This document shows positions 12,331 through 60,339 of a stretch of DNA of 64,000 nt, in pieces. The stretch comes from an uncultured Pseudomonadales bacterium (GTDB lineage Bacteria > Patescibacteriota > Microgenomatia > UBA1400 > PJMF01): contig CAYSMC010000033.1 of the NCBI GenBank assembly GCA_964432115.1, forward strand, positions 1,123 to 65,122, given 5' to 3'. The notes below the pieces were generated by a model. The model searched no databases. It was given only the letters and a program-made list of their open reading frames with translations, and had not been told where the DNA came from. Each line of letters opens with the position of its first letter. The first letter of the stretch is position 1. A program made the position numbers and the translations under genes.

Positions 12331-14271
12331 ATGAGTCAAGCCAAGCAAGGTCTACAGTTTGAAAGACATCAAAAAAATCCAATTTTGTCTCCCAAGTCTG
12401 GTAAAGACTGGCAGGCTCGAGCGGTTTTTAACCCCAGCGTTGTCAAAGAAACTGAGGACAGCTACCATATGTTGTATCGGGCAGTGTCTAATGAAAAAGA
12501 ACAGACTGGTCAGTGGATGAGTTTGTCAACTATTGGCTATGCTGCAAGCAGAAATGGGCTTGATTTTTCAAACACTAGACAATTAATTGTGCCTGAATAT
12601 GATTGGGAAAAATTTGGCTGTGAAGATCCTCGAGTGACTTTTATTGATGGTCAATATTTTATTTTTTACACTGCCCTTTCAGATTTTCCTCATAGCGCAG
12701 ATGGCATTAGGGTGGCGGTAGCGATTAGCGATGATTTAAGAACTATTAAAGAAAAACATTTAGTCACTCACTTCAACGCTAAGGCCATGGCTTTATTCCC
12801 CGAAAAAATTAATGGTCAGTATGTAGCTGTTTTAACTCCAAATACCGATTTACCACCAGCCATGATTGCTGTTGCAAAATTTGATGAATTGGAAGATATT
12901 TGGTCGCCAGGATATTGGGAAAAATGGTATGAATGTATTGATCGTCATCAAATTAATTTGGAGCGTATTGACACTGACCAAATTGAAGTAGGAGGAGTGC
13001 CGATCAAGACTGAGGATGGTTGGTTGTTGCTCTATGCTCATATTCAAAACTATCCAACCGAAAACAAGCGAATTTTTGGTATCGAGGCAGCATTGCTAGA
13101 TTCAAAAAATCCTCAGGAGATTAAAGTTAGAACCAAGGGGCCCCTTCTAACCCCAGGTGTTAAATATGAGGCTGATGGCATGGTGCCCAATGTTATTTTT
13201 CCTTCATCAGCTTTGATTGAGGGTGATAAATTGCGTTTATATTATGGTGCAGCCGATACTCATTGTTCAGCTGCAGAAATCTCCTTAGCTGATCTAGTTA
13301 AAGAGATGAAAGCCAATCTTTTTAAAGAGAGCTATCACTTGGTCAAATATCATCGCAATCCAATTTTGATACCTCGCAGTGAAAATTTTTGGGAAGCCAA
13401 TTCAGTGTTTAATCCAGCTGCAGTATATGTCGGTGACAAATTTTATGTAGTTTATCGAGCCCAATCGCCGGACAATACTTCAACTTTGGGTTTGGCAGAA
13501 AGTGATGACGGCTTTAATTTCAAGCGTTACCACGAACCAATTTATGTACCACGAAAAGAATTCGAACAAAAAAGAGAACCAGGGAGATTATCTGGCTGTG
13601 AAGATCCTCGTATTACTCGCCTAGGAGATGAATTTTTGATGTTCTATACCGCCTACGATGGTATTAATCCACCAAGAGTAGCTCTAAGTTTAATTGCGGT
13701 CAATGATTTTGTTAATCATAACTGGCAATGGTCCGAACCCATAGTTATATCTTCACCAGAAATCGATAATAAAAACAGTTGCCTATTCCCAGAAAAAGTT
13801 AGAGGGCGCTATGTAATCTTACATAGAATGGCTGGTAAAGAGATTGCTATTGATTATCTTGATGATTTAAGTGAGTTGCAAACTGAAGGAGTGTGGTTGG
13901 AAAAAGAACAATCAATTGCTCCTAGAACAGAACACTGGGATGGTTTAAAAATTGGTATTGCTGGGCCACCACTTTTGGTAGATCAAGGATGGTTGCTGCT
14001 TTATCATGGTGTGTCAGATATTGATCATCATTATCGAGTGGGTTTCATGCTTTTAGATAGAGATGATCCAGGCAAAGTTTTGTATCGCTCACCTTATCCA
14101 ATTCTCAAACCAACTGAAGAATTTGAAAGAATTGGTGATGTTGATAATGTGGTGTTTCCCTGCGGGGCAGTGATTGTGAAAGGCACGTTGTTTGTCTACT
14201 ACGGCGGGGCAGATAAGGTGGTTTGTGTAGCCACAGCTGATTTAAGTGAGTTATTGGCGCAAATTAAGTAA
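12331..14271 (+). CDS. tandem-duplicated GH130-family glycoside phosphorylase-like protein
   Basis: Two complete GH130 repeats, each with a GCEDPR(V/I)T motif (FGCEDPRVTFIDGQYF and SGCEDPRITRLGDEFL). It is a paralogue of the upstream gene. Confidence 0.75.
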   Translation: MSQAKQGLQFERHQKNPILSPKSGKDWQARAVFNPSVVKETEDSYHMLYRAVSNEKEQTGQWMSLSTIGYAASRNGLDFSNTRQLIVPEYDWEKFGCEDPRVTFIDGQYFIFYTALSDFPHSADGIRVAVAISDDLRTIKEKHLVTHFNAKAMALFPEKINGQYVAVLTPNTDLPPAMIAVAKFDELEDIWSPGYWEKWYECIDRHQINLERIDTDQIEVGGVPIKTEDGWLLLYAHIQNYPTENKRIFGIEAALLDSKNPQEIKVRTKGPLLTPGVKYEADGMVPNVIFPSSALIEGDKLRLYYGAADTHCSAAEISLADLVKEMKANLFKESYHLVKYHRNPILIPRSENFWEANSVFNPAAVYVGDKFYVVYRAQSPDNTSTLGLAESDDGFNFKRYHEPIYVPRKEFEQKREPGRLSGCEDPRITRLGDEFLMFYTAYDGINPPRVALSLIAVNDFVNHNWQWSEPIVISSPEIDNKNSCLFPEKVRGRYVILHRMAGKEIAIDYLDDLSELQTEGVWLEKEQSIAPRTEHWDGLKIGIAGPPLLVDQGWLLLYHGVSDIDHHYRVGFMLLDRDDPGKVLYRSPYPILKPTEEFERIGDVDNVVFPCGAVIVKGTLFVYYGGADKVVCVATADLSELLAQIK

Positions 14272-36315: not shown

Positions 36316-36548
36316 TTAGGTCGATGAAAATAAAAAGTCGTGTTTTGCTGCGGTATGTTTTTTATTGAAAATCTTTTGGCAAAATCTGTTGTTAATTCAG
36401 GGATAAGGACTTGAATTGCTCCAGGTAAATATTCGAGCACTATTGCTTGCAAATTTTTTTTAGCGATATAGTAATCATCATCTTCATGAAGTCCTTGATT
36501 AAGCATGCTGCCAGCCGGAATAAGAATTTTCTCCTGATTTTTTCCCAT
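36312..36548 (-). CDS. hypothetical small protein (78 aa)
   Basis: ORF convergent with and overlapping the alkD-like stop. No homology recognised. Confidence 0.3.
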   Translation of the reverse strand: MGKNQEKILIPAGSMLNQGLHEDDDYYIAKKNLQAIVLEYLPGAIQVLIPELTTDFAKRFSIKNIPQQNTTFYFHRPN

Positions 36549-36664
36549 ATTTTATTATATCAATTAATATCAAATTTTGTAAGAAACAATAAAATTAATT
36601 TATTTTTTTTATCTACTTAAGGCTTTTAGCTTAAGGAAAAAACGCTATAATAAGACATCTTTAA

Positions 36665-40054: not shown

Positions 40055-40127
40055 AGCAATTACTAAAAAATATTGCATTTTTGTCCTTCTCAAGCTATAA
40101 TGTCCCATAATGTTAAATAACAAGACG

Positions 40128-40931
40128 ATGGTCAAATTTTATCAAAAGGCCCCCGTCAAATTTCTGTTAAAAAAAACTAAAGGTCTGAAAAAGTTGGCTG
40201 TGACTTCTTTTGCTTTCAGCATAATATTTTTATTGTTAAGCAATCCTTTTCTTAGTTGGCAAGGAATTAAGAATTTACCAAATATACTTAATAAATCAAA
40301 AGAGATCATCTCAACTATTCCTGAATTTATCAAAAATTTGCCAGAGGAAGCAGAAAAAAATACTTTTGCTTTCTTTGATTGGACTAAGATGCAGTTAGAT
40401 AATGCTTGGCCAATTTTTGCCAGAGAAAAAGAAGAGAGTCAAGAAGCGGGTCAGAGTGCCTCAACACAAGTGATAGATACACCCGATTACGCCACTTTGC
40501 CTTTTTATATCGAAATTCCCAGCTTAAAAATATATGAAGAGGTGCACGCCAATATTGATCCCAATGAAGCCAAAGAATATCAAATAGCTTTGGAAAATGG
40601 AGTAGCTCACGCACTCAACTCAGCTTTTCCAGGTCAAGACAAGTTGATTTATATCTTTAGTCATTCCACCAATGGCATTTGGAATGTTGAGGCATACAAT
40701 GCTGTTTTTTATCAAATTAAAGATTTGGCCATTGGCGATCAGGTAATTTTGCATCTGGGCGATGAACAATTTATTTATGAGGTTAGCGCTCAAGATATAG
40801 TAGCCAGTAGTGAAGTAGATTTTGTTAATAATTTAAAAGAAGAGAACATCTTATTATTGCAAACCTGTTGGCCTCCGGGAACTAGTTGGCAGCGTTTATT
40901 TGTCAGTGCTGTGCCTGTGCTAGGCGAATAG
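40128..40931 (+). CDS. sortase-family transpeptidase
   Basis: N-terminal TM anchor and catalytic triad context: IFSHST (His), LLLQTCWP (TLxTC Cys), QRLFVSA (Arg). These align to SrtA LAGHTF / QLTLITC / RKIFVA. Confidence 0.75.
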   Translation: MVKFYQKAPVKFLLKKTKGLKKLAVTSFAFSIIFLLLSNPFLSWQGIKNLPNILNKSKEIISTIPEFIKNLPEEAEKNTFAFFDWTKMQLDNAWPIFAREKEESQEAGQSASTQVIDTPDYATLPFYIEIPSLKIYEEVHANIDPNEAKEYQIALENGVAHALNSAFPGQDKLIYIFSHSTNGIWNVEAYNAVFYQIKDLAIGDQVILHLGDEQFIYEVSAQDIVASSEVDFVNNLKEENILLLQTCWPPGTSWQRLFVSAVPVLGE

Positions 40932-40943
40932 TATCCCATAATA

Positions 40944-40972
40944 TTGACAATTAATAATTATAAATATATAAT
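40944..40972 (+). promoter_or_regulatory. consensus sigma70-type promoter TTGACA-N17-TATAAT inside a shared 18-nt motif ATCCCATAATATTGACAA
   Basis: Read directly: TTGACA 40944-40949, 17-nt spacer, TATAAT 40967-40972. It lies about 40 nt upstream of the ATG at 41011. Confidence 0.55.
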
Positions 40973-41010
40973 ATATGCTCATAAATAATAAAATATCAAT
41001 TAGAGTACCT

Positions 41011-41688
41011 ATGAAAAAAATAATTTCTTACCTTTTAATAGTGATCGGTCTTTTTCTATTAGCTATAAATGTAGCTAATGCTAGAGAGTGTCACACTGTT
41101 TATGGTGGTGGTGAAGTCTGTGAAAACGGTGACATTAGTTTGGACAAAAAAGTTTTTAATCCCGAAGCTAATGAATATTGGGATAATATTGCTGCTAGTT
41201 CTTACACTTTTGCTCCTAATCAAGAAGTAAAATTTAGACTACGTATTAAAAATATTGCTGACGTTGAAGTCGATGGCGTTCGTTTGGAAGACGATTTTGC
41301 TCGTTTAGTTGATTATATGGTTTACATCGGCGCCGATGGCGAAAGTTATCCAATTGAGTTTGAAGACAATGTGCTCAAATTTGATTTTGATGATGTCGCT
41401 GCTGGTCAAGAAATTACCGTGTATTTTAACGCTCATTTTAAAGCCGAAAGTGAATTACCAGTTGGGACTACTTGTATCACTAATAAAGCTAAAGTTTATT
41501 CCAAAGAAGATGATGTAAGCGACAGCGATTATGCCAGTTTCTGTGTCAAAGCAGATGAGGGGCAAATTATTAGTGAAGTTACTCCAGATACTGGTTTTGA
41601 TTTAAGCACTATTTTAGCTCTCGAGGCTGTAGCCTTGGCTGGTTTAGGTGCTTTTGCCCTAACAAAAGCTAAGAAAATTAGTAAATAA
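41011..41688 (+). CDS. cell-surface protein with a sortase sorting signal (TPDTG motif + hydrophobic segment + basic tail)
   Basis: Signal peptide MKKIISYLLIVIGLFLLAINVANA. C-terminus EVTPDTGFDLSTILALEAVALAGLGAFALTKAKKISK matches the LPXTG-like tripartite sorting signal. It sits next to the sortase gene. Confidence 0.55.
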   Translation: MKKIISYLLIVIGLFLLAINVANARECHTVYGGGEVCENGDISLDKKVFNPEANEYWDNIAASSYTFAPNQEVKFRLRIKNIADVEVDGVRLEDDFARLVDYMVYIGADGESYPIEFEDNVLKFDFDDVAAGQEITVYFNAHFKAESELPVGTTCITNKAKVYSKEDDVSDSDYASFCVKADEGQIISEVTPDTGFDLSTILALEAVALAGLGAFALTKAKKISK

Positions 41689-41712
41689 TTGTTTTAATTA
41701 AAAATGAAAAAA

Positions 41713-41739
41713 CCCTTCTTTTACAGAAGGGTTTTTTTT
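41713..41739 (+). terminator. Rho-independent terminator (CCCTTCT-TTTAC-AGAAGGG + T8)
   Basis: 7-bp GC-containing stem, 5-nt loop and TTTTTTTT, immediately after the stop of 41011..41688. Confidence 0.6.
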
Positions 41740-41818
41740 AAAATAAAAGAAACATGTGTGAGGCTTAATTATTTATTGTTTAGCCTGGAAAGGAATCTCA
41801 ATTTAACATCCCATAATA

Positions 41819-41847
41819 TTGACAAAAATGACTTTATTTGATATACT
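41819..41847 (+). promoter_or_regulatory. second copy of the shared motif, with promoter TTGACA-N17-TATACT, heading a roughly 340-nt leader before gene 42195
   Basis: ATCCCATAATATTGACAA is repeated exactly at 41807-41824. -35 at 41819-41824 and -10 at 41842-41847. Confidence 0.5.
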
Positions 41848-42194
41848 TTTACATACTTATCAAATCTTTTTATTAGAGAACAGATTTTGACATTCCAATC
41901 TTTTTTCCCAACCCCTCGTGTCGAAAATTGTTCTCTACTTGAAAGAGTAGAAGAAGGAGCTCTTAAGTAAGGTCTTAAAACCTGAGAATCGCTTTCAGAG
42001 TTTTGAGTCACTTACAAAAAGAGACGCACCTTAACAAGGAGGAAAAGAATGCCCTAGGCATTTTGGTCCAGCTTTTGTGACAATCATTGCAATGTGGTTG
42101 TTAGAGAAGCTGGTCCAATTGTGCCGAAAGGCAAGGGACGAGCCGGTGGCCACTGACGTGCAGTGGAAACTTTCGCGCTAAAAAGGAGAATGCC

Positions 42195-43130
42195 ATGCGC
42201 AAAAAAATGTTTATTTTGGTTTGTGTACTTTTAGTGGCGAGCTTGCTCGCCGCCTGCAAACCGCAGGTTACCGTCAATGTTCCAGAGCAAAAACCACCAG
42301 ATGTTGTGGTAAATGTTCCAGAACAGGAACCTCCGTCAATCAATGTGGAGGTGATTGTTCCCAAAACATCAAAAGAAGCAGAACCGGTTGAAGAACCAGA
42401 GTTGGTTGAAGAACCCGAGCTCGTTGAAGCTTCTGAAGCCATAGTCGTCCAAAATTGGGCTAAATGCCCATTGGAGGACAAAGGCGTTCGCCTCGAATTT
42501 GATGGTCCGAATGATGGTGAATTTTACCTCATTTCTGGCCTCAGCGAGGATTTTGCAGTCTATGAAGGCTGTAATTTCCTATTCGAGGGCCGTCAATTTT
42601 TGACCGAAGAACACCATATTTGGGTCTTCCAAGATCCAGATTGGCAATTGAAGGTTCGAGAGGGTAGCCTCTGGGCTTATCCCTCAGACTGGAACATGGT
42701 TGACTTCTCAACTGAGAAGCCGCCGATCGTAGCCGAGTTCGTAACCGCGAAGCGGCAAAATCAGTTGATTAACGGCTATGACTGGGTAATTTTTGTCCAC
42801 GACGGTGAGATTCTTTATGAATTTCCCGTTGGGCAAGATACGCCCAAAGTAGTTTTACCCGACAACGCCGACTTCACAGAACCCGAACCACTCGTGGTTC
42901 AAGGCGTCTGGGATGGTGAGATGTTTGATGCCTCAATTGGGGCAGAAAATACAATCACCGTTTCGATGTTGGATGGACAATTGTTTTATTGGGCGAATGC
43001 CCAAGACAACATTGTCTACAAAACCGTTGAAGCCTGGATCATGCCGTCAGCATGGTCGCTCGAACAGATTGAGAGTTGGGCAGAACAAAATTTTCCCAAC
43101 CAAAGTTTGGTCGAATACAACGGCGGCTAA
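42195..43130 (+). CDS. lipoprotein (lipobox LLAAC) with tandem VNVPEQxPP / EEPELV repeats; GC-rich relative to surroundings
   Basis: Signal peptide plus Cys lipobox MRKKMFILVCVLLVASLLAAC. GC is clearly elevated versus neighbours. It is followed by a 9-bp GC hairpin at 43144-43175. Confidence 0.55.
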   Translation: MRKKMFILVCVLLVASLLAACKPQVTVNVPEQKPPDVVVNVPEQEPPSINVEVIVPKTSKEAEPVEEPELVEEPELVEASEAIVVQNWAKCPLEDKGVRLEFDGPNDGEFYLISGLSEDFAVYEGCNFLFEGRQFLTEEHHIWVFQDPDWQLKVREGSLWAYPSDWNMVDFSTEKPPIVAEFVTAKRQNQLINGYDWVIFVHDGEILYEFPVGQDTPKVVLPDNADFTEPEPLVVQGVWDGEMFDASIGAENTITVSMLDGQLFYWANAQDNIVYKTVEAWIMPSAWSLEQIESWAEQNFPNQSLVEYNGG

Positions 43131-60020: not shown

Positions 60021-60057
60021 AATACTCAAGTAATTTGCTTCTTGCCAAGATACCCCC

Positions 60058-60339
60058 ATGGGGTATAATAAAAATATGGATTTTGCAAAAAAGAAACTTA
60101 GTTTAACTAGTGAAGATAAAACAATTACCCAACTCAAACGCATTCGTGGTCAAGTTGACGGTTTGATTCGGATGTATCAAAACGAAAGATCTTGTGTCGA
60201 AATAGCGCACCAAATCACAGCAGCTCGCAATTCGCTGTCGCGAGTTGCTCGCGATGTCTTGACTAACGCCGCTAATCACTGTATTAAAGAAAAAGATCAA
60301 AGCCAATTAAATTCAATTTTAAAAGAATTATTAAAGTAA
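60058..60339 (+). CDS. CsoR/RcnR/FrmR-family (DUF156) metal- or thiol-sensing transcriptional repressor
   Basis: LKRIRGQVDGLIRMY...CVEIAHQITAARNSLSRVARDVLTNAANHCI follows the CsoR-family helix bundle with the conserved Cys (RSCVE) and His/Cys (NHC) sensing positions. Confidence 0.7.
   Translation: MGYNKNMDFAKKKLSLTSEDKTITQLKRIRGQVDGLIRMYQNERSCVEIAHQITAARNSLSRVARDVLTNAANHCIKEKDQSQLNSILKELLK

Follow-up and report, generated by a model that had tools for sequence, protein, structure and literature searches.

Why should a sortase gene, the gene of its predicted substrate and a lipoprotein gene share one short word at their promoters? The question is raised by a 64,000-nt stretch of contig CAYSMC010000033.1 (assembly GCA_964432115.1, positions 1,123 to 65,122 of the forward strand; lineage Patescibacteriota), hereafter called the window, in which the exact 18-mer ATCCCATAATATTGACAA stands twice on the + strand, at 40933-40950 and at 41808-41825, and its core a third time at the start of the sortase gene. 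A previous sequence-only reading of this DNA had reported the 18-mer pair, correctly as to the identity of the two copies and with coordinates each shifted by 1 nt, and had suggested a site that coordinates a small cell-surface regulon. We report here that the 10-bp word within the repeat, RTCCYATARY, is very likely a real and previously undescribed control site. Judging from sequence and placement, we consider the chances about even that it is a functional cis-regulatory element and the predicted site of one regulator at all three promoters.

A word shared by three promoters

With up to three mismatches allowed, no further match to the 18-mer was found in the 64-kb window, where 0.14 would be expected. 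As this AT-rich window holds four different exact 18-mer pairs, little can be concluded from the repeat by itself. Of the 9-mer TCCCATAAT there are exactly three copies in the 64 kb, always on the + strand and always inside the same 1.7 kb, and its one-mismatch variants show no enrichment in the window (18 found, 20.5 expected).

The two 18-mers, designated copies A and B in the order of their positions, each consist of ATCCCATAAT, a single A, the -35 box TTGACA and a further A; copy A starts 2 nt past the sortase stop codon. Both are embedded in promoters, as had been noticed before: in promoter A, TTGACA (40944-40949, + strand) is followed at 17 nt by TATAAT (40967-40972), matching 12 of 12 consensus positions, and in promoter B, TTGACA (41819-41824, + strand) is followed at 17 nt by TATACT (41842-41847), matching 11 of 12 and carrying a TG extended -10. 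These are the top two sigma-70 consensus matches in a scan of the whole window. The module has the layout motif, 1 nt, TTGACAA, 16 nt, TAtAaT, and, on the assumption of a start 7 nt past the -10 box, the 10-mer would occupy about -46 to -37, with its centre at -41.5. Promoter A drives the gene of the TPDTG protein described below, an arrangement conserved in orthologs and already proposed by the sequence-only reading. Copy B was likewise placed rightly upstream of the lipoprotein gene, but it does not head this gene directly, since a structured leader RNA lies in between.

Copy C is placed differently. The degenerate third copy that had been claimed to overlap the sortase start, GTCCCATAATG at 40102-40112 (9-mer core at 40103-40111), is present and holds the motif as GTCCCATAAT (40102-40111, + strand), with an exact match to the 9-mer here and the pattern TATAAT-R-TCCYATARY kept in every ortholog; it stands after a -10 box, however, and not upstream of a -35 box. 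The 9-mer begins 1 nt past TATAAT (40096-40101) and overlaps the first two bases of the ATG (40110-40112). Because TTGCAT (40073-40078) precedes this TATAAT at 17 nt, we assign it to the sortase gene's own predicted promoter on the + strand, which was read from sequence and whose arrangement is kept in orthologs (TTGCtt-N17-TATAAT ahead of the sortase gene at 18 orthologous loci). Copy C covers the predicted sortase transcription start, from about -6 to +4, a position that would suit a repressor.

Conservation in orthologous loci

A profile of 31 sortase orthologs led to 80 genome loci (numbered with the prefix L), among which L005-L026 carry full-length orthologs, with 49-79% identity in the locus scan. 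The three sites are present in nearly every ortholog locus that reaches far enough, about 20 loci in all: site C as TATAAT-R-TCCYATARY at the sortase start; site A as RTCCYATARY-N-TTGACAA with a conserved spacer and TATAAT, ahead of a TPxTG substrate gene; and site B as the same word with TTGACAA, the spacer AAAATGACTTATAGTGA and TATACT, behind the substrate gene. Per-position information, calculated from 16-18 species per site class, is as high for RTCCYATARY as for the -35 and -10 hexamers, and the directly adjoining sequence to the left of the word is unconserved, giving it a sharp edge. Throughout the sortase clade, a single nucleotide separates the motif from TTGACA at all A and B sites. 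A chance repeat is ruled out by this conservation in about 20 species, and the earlier view of the motif as promoter-embedded and non-random is borne out by strong purifying selection across the orthologous loci. The same holds for the proposed link between sortase, substrate and lipoprotein, as the TPxTG substrate and the lipoprotein unit recur with the motif in many genomes. Further conserved parts are an ATTATAA element in the spacer of promoter A (ATATACAATTATAAGTA) and the first transcribed bases behind promoter B, both kept across species.

The degenerate positions of the motif co-vary across the three copies of one genome. In 45 of 53 pairs of copies from the same genome, position 4 holds the same base, where permutation gives 27.8 (none of 2000 permutations came as high), and position 8 agrees in 49 of 53, against 39.7. 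All copies read AGT in L015 and L017, AAC in L016 and CCCATAAT in the subclade of the window. Such concerted variation would be expected if one trans-acting factor reads all three copies.

Traces of the word extend to more distant sortase loci. In L026, L027, L028, L032 and L066 a TTGACA directly 3' of the sortase gene is preceded at a distance of 1-8 nt by a YCYATAR core; such a core is found at 5 of the 18 TTGACA sites in this position, compared with about 1% of all TTGAC[AT] sites.

Targets beyond the sortase loci

In 1.3 Mb of Patescibacteria loci the motif accompanies 46 of 134 strong promoter-like sites, and nearly all of these 46 are A and B sites. It is absent upstream of the three tRNA genes of the window and at the tRNA-Ala/23S/5S promoter of L066. 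The pattern search that the sequence-only reading had called for was run on metagenome contigs with ATCCYATAATATTGACAA and returned at least 120 loci. Among the matches listed, 61 of 104 distinct contexts have a TAnnnT -10 box at 16-18 nt, for which the chance rate is roughly estimated at about 12%. As a control, a somewhat looser pattern was run on viral contigs; of its 20 matches, three pass the -10 test and only one is promoter-like.

About 16 of the 61 promoter-context matches listed belong to sortase loci and about 45 to other promoters. Where a downstream open reading frame (ORF) could be called, the encoded N-terminus is a signal peptide, lipobox or membrane segment at 26 of 49 promoter-context sites among the matches listed, sortase loci included. 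Elsewhere, too, it is mostly envelope-protein genes that the motif heads. Further YGGG-type sortase substrates stand behind motif promoters in L124 and L125, and lipoproteins behind leaders of 140-440 nt in L111, L112, L118, L123, L143 and L185. Near-complete contigs of 300-800 kb carry one or two exact copies each among the matches listed, which points to few targets per genome.

The sole promoter-like viral match lies on contig IMGVR_UViG_3300022538_001038 (L209:12589-12605, minus strand) and reads TCCTATAGT-A-TTGACA, 17 nt, TATAGT, then CTATAGGA, so that the promoter is bracketed by the motif and its reverse complement. In L020 (6702 to about 6400, minus strand) and also in L021 (at 982), a motif promoter of the form TCCTATAAT-tt-TTGACA, 17 nt, TATAAT was seen; that of L020 lies 3.3 kb upstream of the sortase gene on the opposite strand and is followed by a perfect boxA, GCTCTTTAACA, within about 800 nt devoid of ORFs. 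To judge by these features, the minus-strand transcript is possibly a stand-alone non-coding RNA.

Regulator site or promoter element

As would be expected of an operator, the same word is found at defined promoter positions, three per locus in about 20 species, and is conserved where its flanks are not. We therefore favour a regulator site, on the grounds of this conservation, the fixed phase with the -35 box, the concerted variation, the restricted targets and the absence of the motif from the stable-RNA promoters examined. One putative DNA-binding factor would recognise all three copies. At promoters A and B, where the motif is centred at the canonical class II activator position of -41.5, it would help RNA polymerase, and at the weaker sortase promoter it would occlude or limit initiation through copy C. 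The three units would in this way be coupled, with the enzyme scarce and the substrate abundant.

Class II sites of the CRP/FNR kind (-41.5) resemble the A and B copies in that the 10-mer adjoins the -35 box with its centre at about -41.5, given a start 7 nt past the -10 box; through the further copy at a start site, the same factor would act as a repressor of that promoter, as is the case for many dual regulators. They differ from the motif in sequence and in their dyad, the motif having 10 conserved bp without dyad symmetry at promoters that are already of consensus type. The Gram-positive sortase and pilus islands of the RlrA, EbpR and RofA/Nra type also coordinate sortase and substrate from several promoters; these islands encode their own regulator, none of which was seen here, their sites are unrelated, and the present locus belongs to Patescibacteria with TPxTG substrates.

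Several points weigh against a single regulator. The permutation test for concerted variation ignores phylogeny and reflects about three independent events, and the pattern could also have come from gene conversion. The gap between motif and -35 box drifts from 0 to 6 nt in distant lineages, which makes a strict class II contact awkward, and the motif shows no clear palindrome, repeat or dyad symmetry. Searches with Pfam and NCBIfam found no regulator gene in or near the locus, where the surrounding genes encode glycosyltransferases, membrane proteins and a VirD4-like ATPase; the nearest DNA-binding candidate is a CsoR-like repressor 18 kb off. Moreover, the promoters are near consensus already, so that an activator may be dispensable.

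Two candidates were also rejected in the course of this work. The small extra ORFs of L012, L013, L020 and L024 and the small ORFs of the window were considered as regulator genes; those of the relatives matched no Pfam domain, and no DNA-binding domain was found near the locus. A palindromic operator, TCCTATAGGA, gave 415 matches against 428 in shuffled sequence, and 50 against 43 beside -35 boxes, in 0.9 Mb of distant loci. We know of no named operator that the motif matches, and when we searched the literature for the motif string, for promoters or transcriptional control in Patescibacteria and for sortase systems of this group, we found nothing relevant.

Another possible explanation is that RNA polymerase itself reads the motif, without a dedicated regulator, as an intrinsic promoter-strength element used for maximal transcription, either through an UP-like contact with the C-terminal domain of the alpha subunit or as an extended -35. 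The interval from -46 to -37 is indeed that of the proximal UP subsite, known from E. coli rrn P1; the motif always comes with a consensus -35 box and often with an extended -10, it heads many unrelated metagenome promoters, and the leader of unit B (the transcript from promoter B) is rrn-like in carrying a boxA. The position thus fits, but the invariant TCC is unlike the A/T tracts of UP elements, and no such tract is seen here. Nor would a strength element readily be missing where this motif is, at the tRNA promoters of the window, the L066 tRNA/23S promoter and the majority of the other strong promoter-like sites; copy C, lying at the sortase start, cannot serve as an UP element at all, and lineage-specific concerted changes fit poorly with a highly conserved polymerase domain. 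We consider this explanation unlikely, and of the earlier proposal of an 'UP element or regulator site' the latter half fits better, the classical UP element being disfavoured by the invariant TCC, the lack of an A-tract and the tRNA and L066 rRNA/tRNA promoters without the motif. Comparison with rrn P1 as a whole leads the same way: both combine a very strong promoter with an element just ahead of the -35 box and with a structured leader in which a GYTCTTTAANA-like boxA lies, and they differ in the element itself (TCC as opposed to an A/T tract), in the product (a lipoprotein operon in place of rRNA) and in that the tRNA and rRNA promoters examined here lack the motif.

It is less probable still that the word is a -10-like element (TCC plus TATAAT) bound by sigma-70, forming a tandem promoter at A and B and a promoter-proximal pause at the sortase gene. 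Most species do read TCCTATAAT, which contains a perfect TATAAT; in L027 this very sequence serves the sortase promoter as its -10 box, 17 nt past a TTGACA; and the TATAAT-N4-TATAAT of the sortase promoter resembles known pause-inducing elements, such as those of lambda PR' and lacUV5, in which a -10-like hexamer follows the true -10 by a few nt. Unlike these, the word is also found ahead of the -35 box in promoters A and B, and it tolerates C at the equivalent of T-7: 13 of the 53 copies end in C (TATAAC), and those of the window subclade start with C (CATAAT). To our knowledge, functional -10 boxes hardly ever lack the T at -7, and such variants therefore argue against a -10 role. The invariant TCC has no part in -10 recognition, no conserved -35 or TG is found upstream of the motif, and a lineage-wide extended -10 of the form TCC-TATAAT can be dismissed, as in distant Patescibacteria TCC shows no more than a 1.4-fold enrichment ahead of TATAAT. 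Finally, the direct repeats might have no regulatory role and be sites of recombination or cassette exchange, or remnants of promoter duplication held alike by gene conversion, with which the concerted variation would be compatible. The substrate gene does lie between the two 18-mers, which are direct repeats, the content between copies varies among relatives (extra ORFs, about 2.9 kb in L015, L017 and L019), a 221-nt replacement in L003 deletes copy A, and the region behind promoter B is mosaic between lineages. Against this, identity stops exactly at the -35 box with unrelated flanks, the phase with the -35 box is fixed in about 20 species, the motif heads single-copy promoters elsewhere, no recombinase was found near the locus with Pfam and NCBIfam, and the one mapped breakpoint falls in boxA and not in the motif. 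We regard this last explanation as highly improbable.

A structured leader with a boxA-like element

Promoter B and the lipoprotein start codon (ATG at 42195) are separated, counting from the -10 box, by about 340 nt, or by 350-620 nt in relatives. In more than 20 genomes the nucleotide sequence of this stretch is conserved, and its indels have lengths not divisible by three. Minimum free energy (MFE) folding and covariation identify this stretch as a structured leader RNA of about 340 nt (41854-42194, + strand, with a predicted start), composed of a conserved 5' core (41868-42048), a variable 3' domain (42050-42180) and a Shine-Dalgarno GGAG (42185-42188). Its MFE is -124.6 kcal/mol (z = -7.95 against shuffles). 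The consensus structure from 12 species has 36 pairs, 15 of them with compensatory changes, and 91% of cells paired; the covariation score of 0.40 compares with 0.24 in shuffled alignments (none of 500 came as high) and with 0.05-0.12 once the partners are slid.

No Rfam 15 family matches the leader at gathering score, matches with E up to 10 being microRNA-type noise only, and none matches the leaders of L014, L019 and 20 other loci. It is thus a candidate for a new structured RNA with a boxA, placed in no Rfam family and recognised by sequence and predicted fold. A hidden Markov model of the sequence confines the leader core to the sortase clade. A covariance model built from the core reaches beyond it, to L118 (E = 5e-5), L153 (2e-4) and L123 (0.02), in each case directly downstream of a motif promoter, in loci originally retrieved through the 18-mer alone. 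The distant sortase locus L066 is matched as well (E = 5e-6); weaker matches in L062 and L035 were discarded, as they appear to sit in coding sequence.

No part of the leader varies less than GCACCTTAACA (42026-42036, + strand), which agrees at 9 of 11 positions with GYTCTTTAANA, the boxA consensus derived for gamma-proteobacteria (PMC5725501), and keeps C4 and T6, the two positions at which mutation abolished function in E. coli (PMC5725501). Matches at 11 of 11 positions are found in L015, L017 and the minus-strand transcript of L020, and the rRNA spacer of L066, also from Patescibacteria, carries the boxA-like GCTCTTTGACAA. BoxA-like words occur at 0.71 per kb downstream of motif promoters and at 0.31 per kb in the background. 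The element is unpaired in the consensus fold and partly paired in the single-sequence MFE structure. From these features we infer that unit B combines a strong promoter, a structured leader with a predicted Nus-factor loading site and the lipoprotein gene, in which boxA in the nascent leader would recruit NusB/NusE-type factors; the downstream envelope genes probably belong to the same unit. Control by boxA outside rRNA is documented for the 5' untranslated region of suhB and for the leaders of CRISPR arrays (PMC5725501, PMC7665894). Those leaders are alike in that boxA lies in the 5' leader of a non-ribosomal unit, distant from the coding or functional part; here it is set inside a conserved structured RNA of 340-620 nt in another phylum.

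Right behind boxA, the window (42037-42060) and its orthologs show a Shine-Dalgarno-like AAGGAGG and an ATG that in many species opens a mini-ORF of 2 to 20 codons. In the window this reads ATG CCC TAG, and since the same bases form the hairpin ATGCC-CTA-GGCAT, its coding is doubtful. The arrangement ACGCA...AAGGAG recurs just ahead of the real lipoprotein start codon.

Lipoprotein genes and the mosaic region behind boxA

The lipoprotein gene of the window (42195-43130, + strand; 311 aa, lipobox LLAAC) belongs to no Pfam or NCBIfam family and has a strong AAGGAG Shine-Dalgarno sequence, unlike the genes with short 5' ends described below. Its GC content is 47%, and that of its third codon positions (GC3) 0.48, compared with about 0.25 in the genome. 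The genes behind the leader in relatives (L005-L024) comprise several unrelated lipoprotein families and are likewise GC-rich (GC 0.47-0.58, GC3 0.43-0.71, all above the genome value of about 0.25). Going by source names, the 20 homologs of the window lipoprotein appear limited to this Patescibacteria clade, and an acquisition from another phylum was accordingly rejected.

In a comparison of L014:12300-12700 with L025:9590-9990, the sequences are 62% identical upstream of boxA and 98% identical over the 3' leader from TTAACAAGG on, with sortases 53% identical; the start of the lipoprotein gene stays similar and the breakpoint lies inside boxA. L019 and L023 show a like pattern (86% downstream, 59% upstream). 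On this comparison, boxA appears to be a recombination junction. Taken together with the promoter, one may ask whether motif and boxA leader form a 'surface-protein expression site' of Patescibacteria, in which a factor would read RTCCYATARY, the leader would load Nus factors, and variable, GC-rich lipoprotein genes with their 3' leader domains would be exchanged downstream of boxA through recombination between lineages; this is a speculative proposal, and we think it rather unlikely to hold in full.

Genes of the locus

The order of genes is PMT-like glycosyltransferase, sortase, TPDTG substrate, terminator, copy B, about 340 nt without an ORF, and lipoprotein, followed on the 3' side by a GT1 glycosyltransferase and large membrane proteins. 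The sortase (40110-40931, + strand; 273 aa) is recognised by Pfam PF04203 (E = 9e-18) and by NCBIfam sortase_fam above cutoff, and its His185, Cys253 and Arg262 are invariant in the 31 orthologs. Homologs carry the names Patescibacteria, Paceibacteria or Microgenomates, and identical or nearly identical DNA is found in JGI and Logan metagenome contigs, one of them named MLSed, which suggests Mono Lake sediment.

The adjacent gene (41013-41688, + strand) encodes 225 aa from MKKIISY, with a second in-frame ATG at 40975. The protein has a signal peptide and a weak DUF11/isopeptide-type domain match, and ends in TPDTG, 22 hydrophobic residues and KAKKISK, as in a cell-wall sorting signal. TP[DASE]TG, a membrane segment and a basic tail are kept in 16 substrate orthologs. 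Encoded beside the sortase gene, it is a predicted sortase substrate. Unit A, the transcript from promoter A, ends at a strong intrinsic terminator, AAAAAACCCTTCT-tttac-AGAAGGGTTTTTTTT (41707-41745, + strand), with a 13-bp stem and a T-run, which is symmetrical and so can be read on both strands.

In L003, the MLSed contig, which is otherwise 99.9% identical, 277 nt (window 40734-41010) are swapped for 221 unrelated nt (L003:7940-8161) that match nothing in the window. Lost with the swap are copy A, the C-terminal end of the sortase including its catalytic Cys, and the start codon of the substrate gene. The window version across copy A is supported by two other samples, and the L003 variant may be a natural knockout or an assembly chimera.

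Other features of the window

In relatives the ATG lies 8-9 nt past the -10 box of promoter A, a distance so short that leaderless mRNAs are suggested. Start codons 5-9 nt behind good -10 boxes and without a Shine-Dalgarno sequence were also seen in the window at 40096-40112, 36548-36583 (minus strand) and 60064-60078. The genes with such short 5' ends are the sortase gene, a 78-aa minus-strand ORF, the CsoR-like gene and most substrate genes of relatives (A promoters of L012-L025), and these placements suggest that leaderless mRNAs are common in the lineage.

The third-best promoter of the window (60042-60069; TTGCCA, 16 nt, TATAAT) precedes the gene of the CsoR-family metal-sensing repressor (PF02583; ORF 60058/60076-60339). 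As the palindrome ATACCCCCATGGGGTAT lies in the spacer of the repressor's own promoter, it is probably the autoregulatory operator of this CsoR-like gene.

Two of the other exact 18-mer pairs deserve mention. One, AATTGTTTTAATTAAAAA, stands at 1994-2011 and 41687-41704, in both cases 3' intergenic right behind a stop codon, and may be a shared 3'-end signal or, given its AT-richness, chance. The other, TGGCTGTGAAGATCCTCG, at 12615-12632 and 13593-13610, is repeated 978 nt apart inside a 646-aa ORF (12331-14271) and suggests an internal domain duplication.

Significance for Patescibacteria

The Patescibacteria, or candidate phyla radiation (CPR), are mostly uncultured and depend on cell-surface contact with their hosts. 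The motif offers a handle for finding the regulator, for predicting, in metagenome-assembled genomes, which surface proteins are most highly expressed, and for constructing strong native promoters for the emerging genetic systems of this group. The boxA leader would extend Nus-factor control to the envelope genes of a distant phylum, and a 'surface-protein expression site', if it exists, would give these episymbiotic ultrasmall bacteria a dedicated means to vary and over-express their surface.

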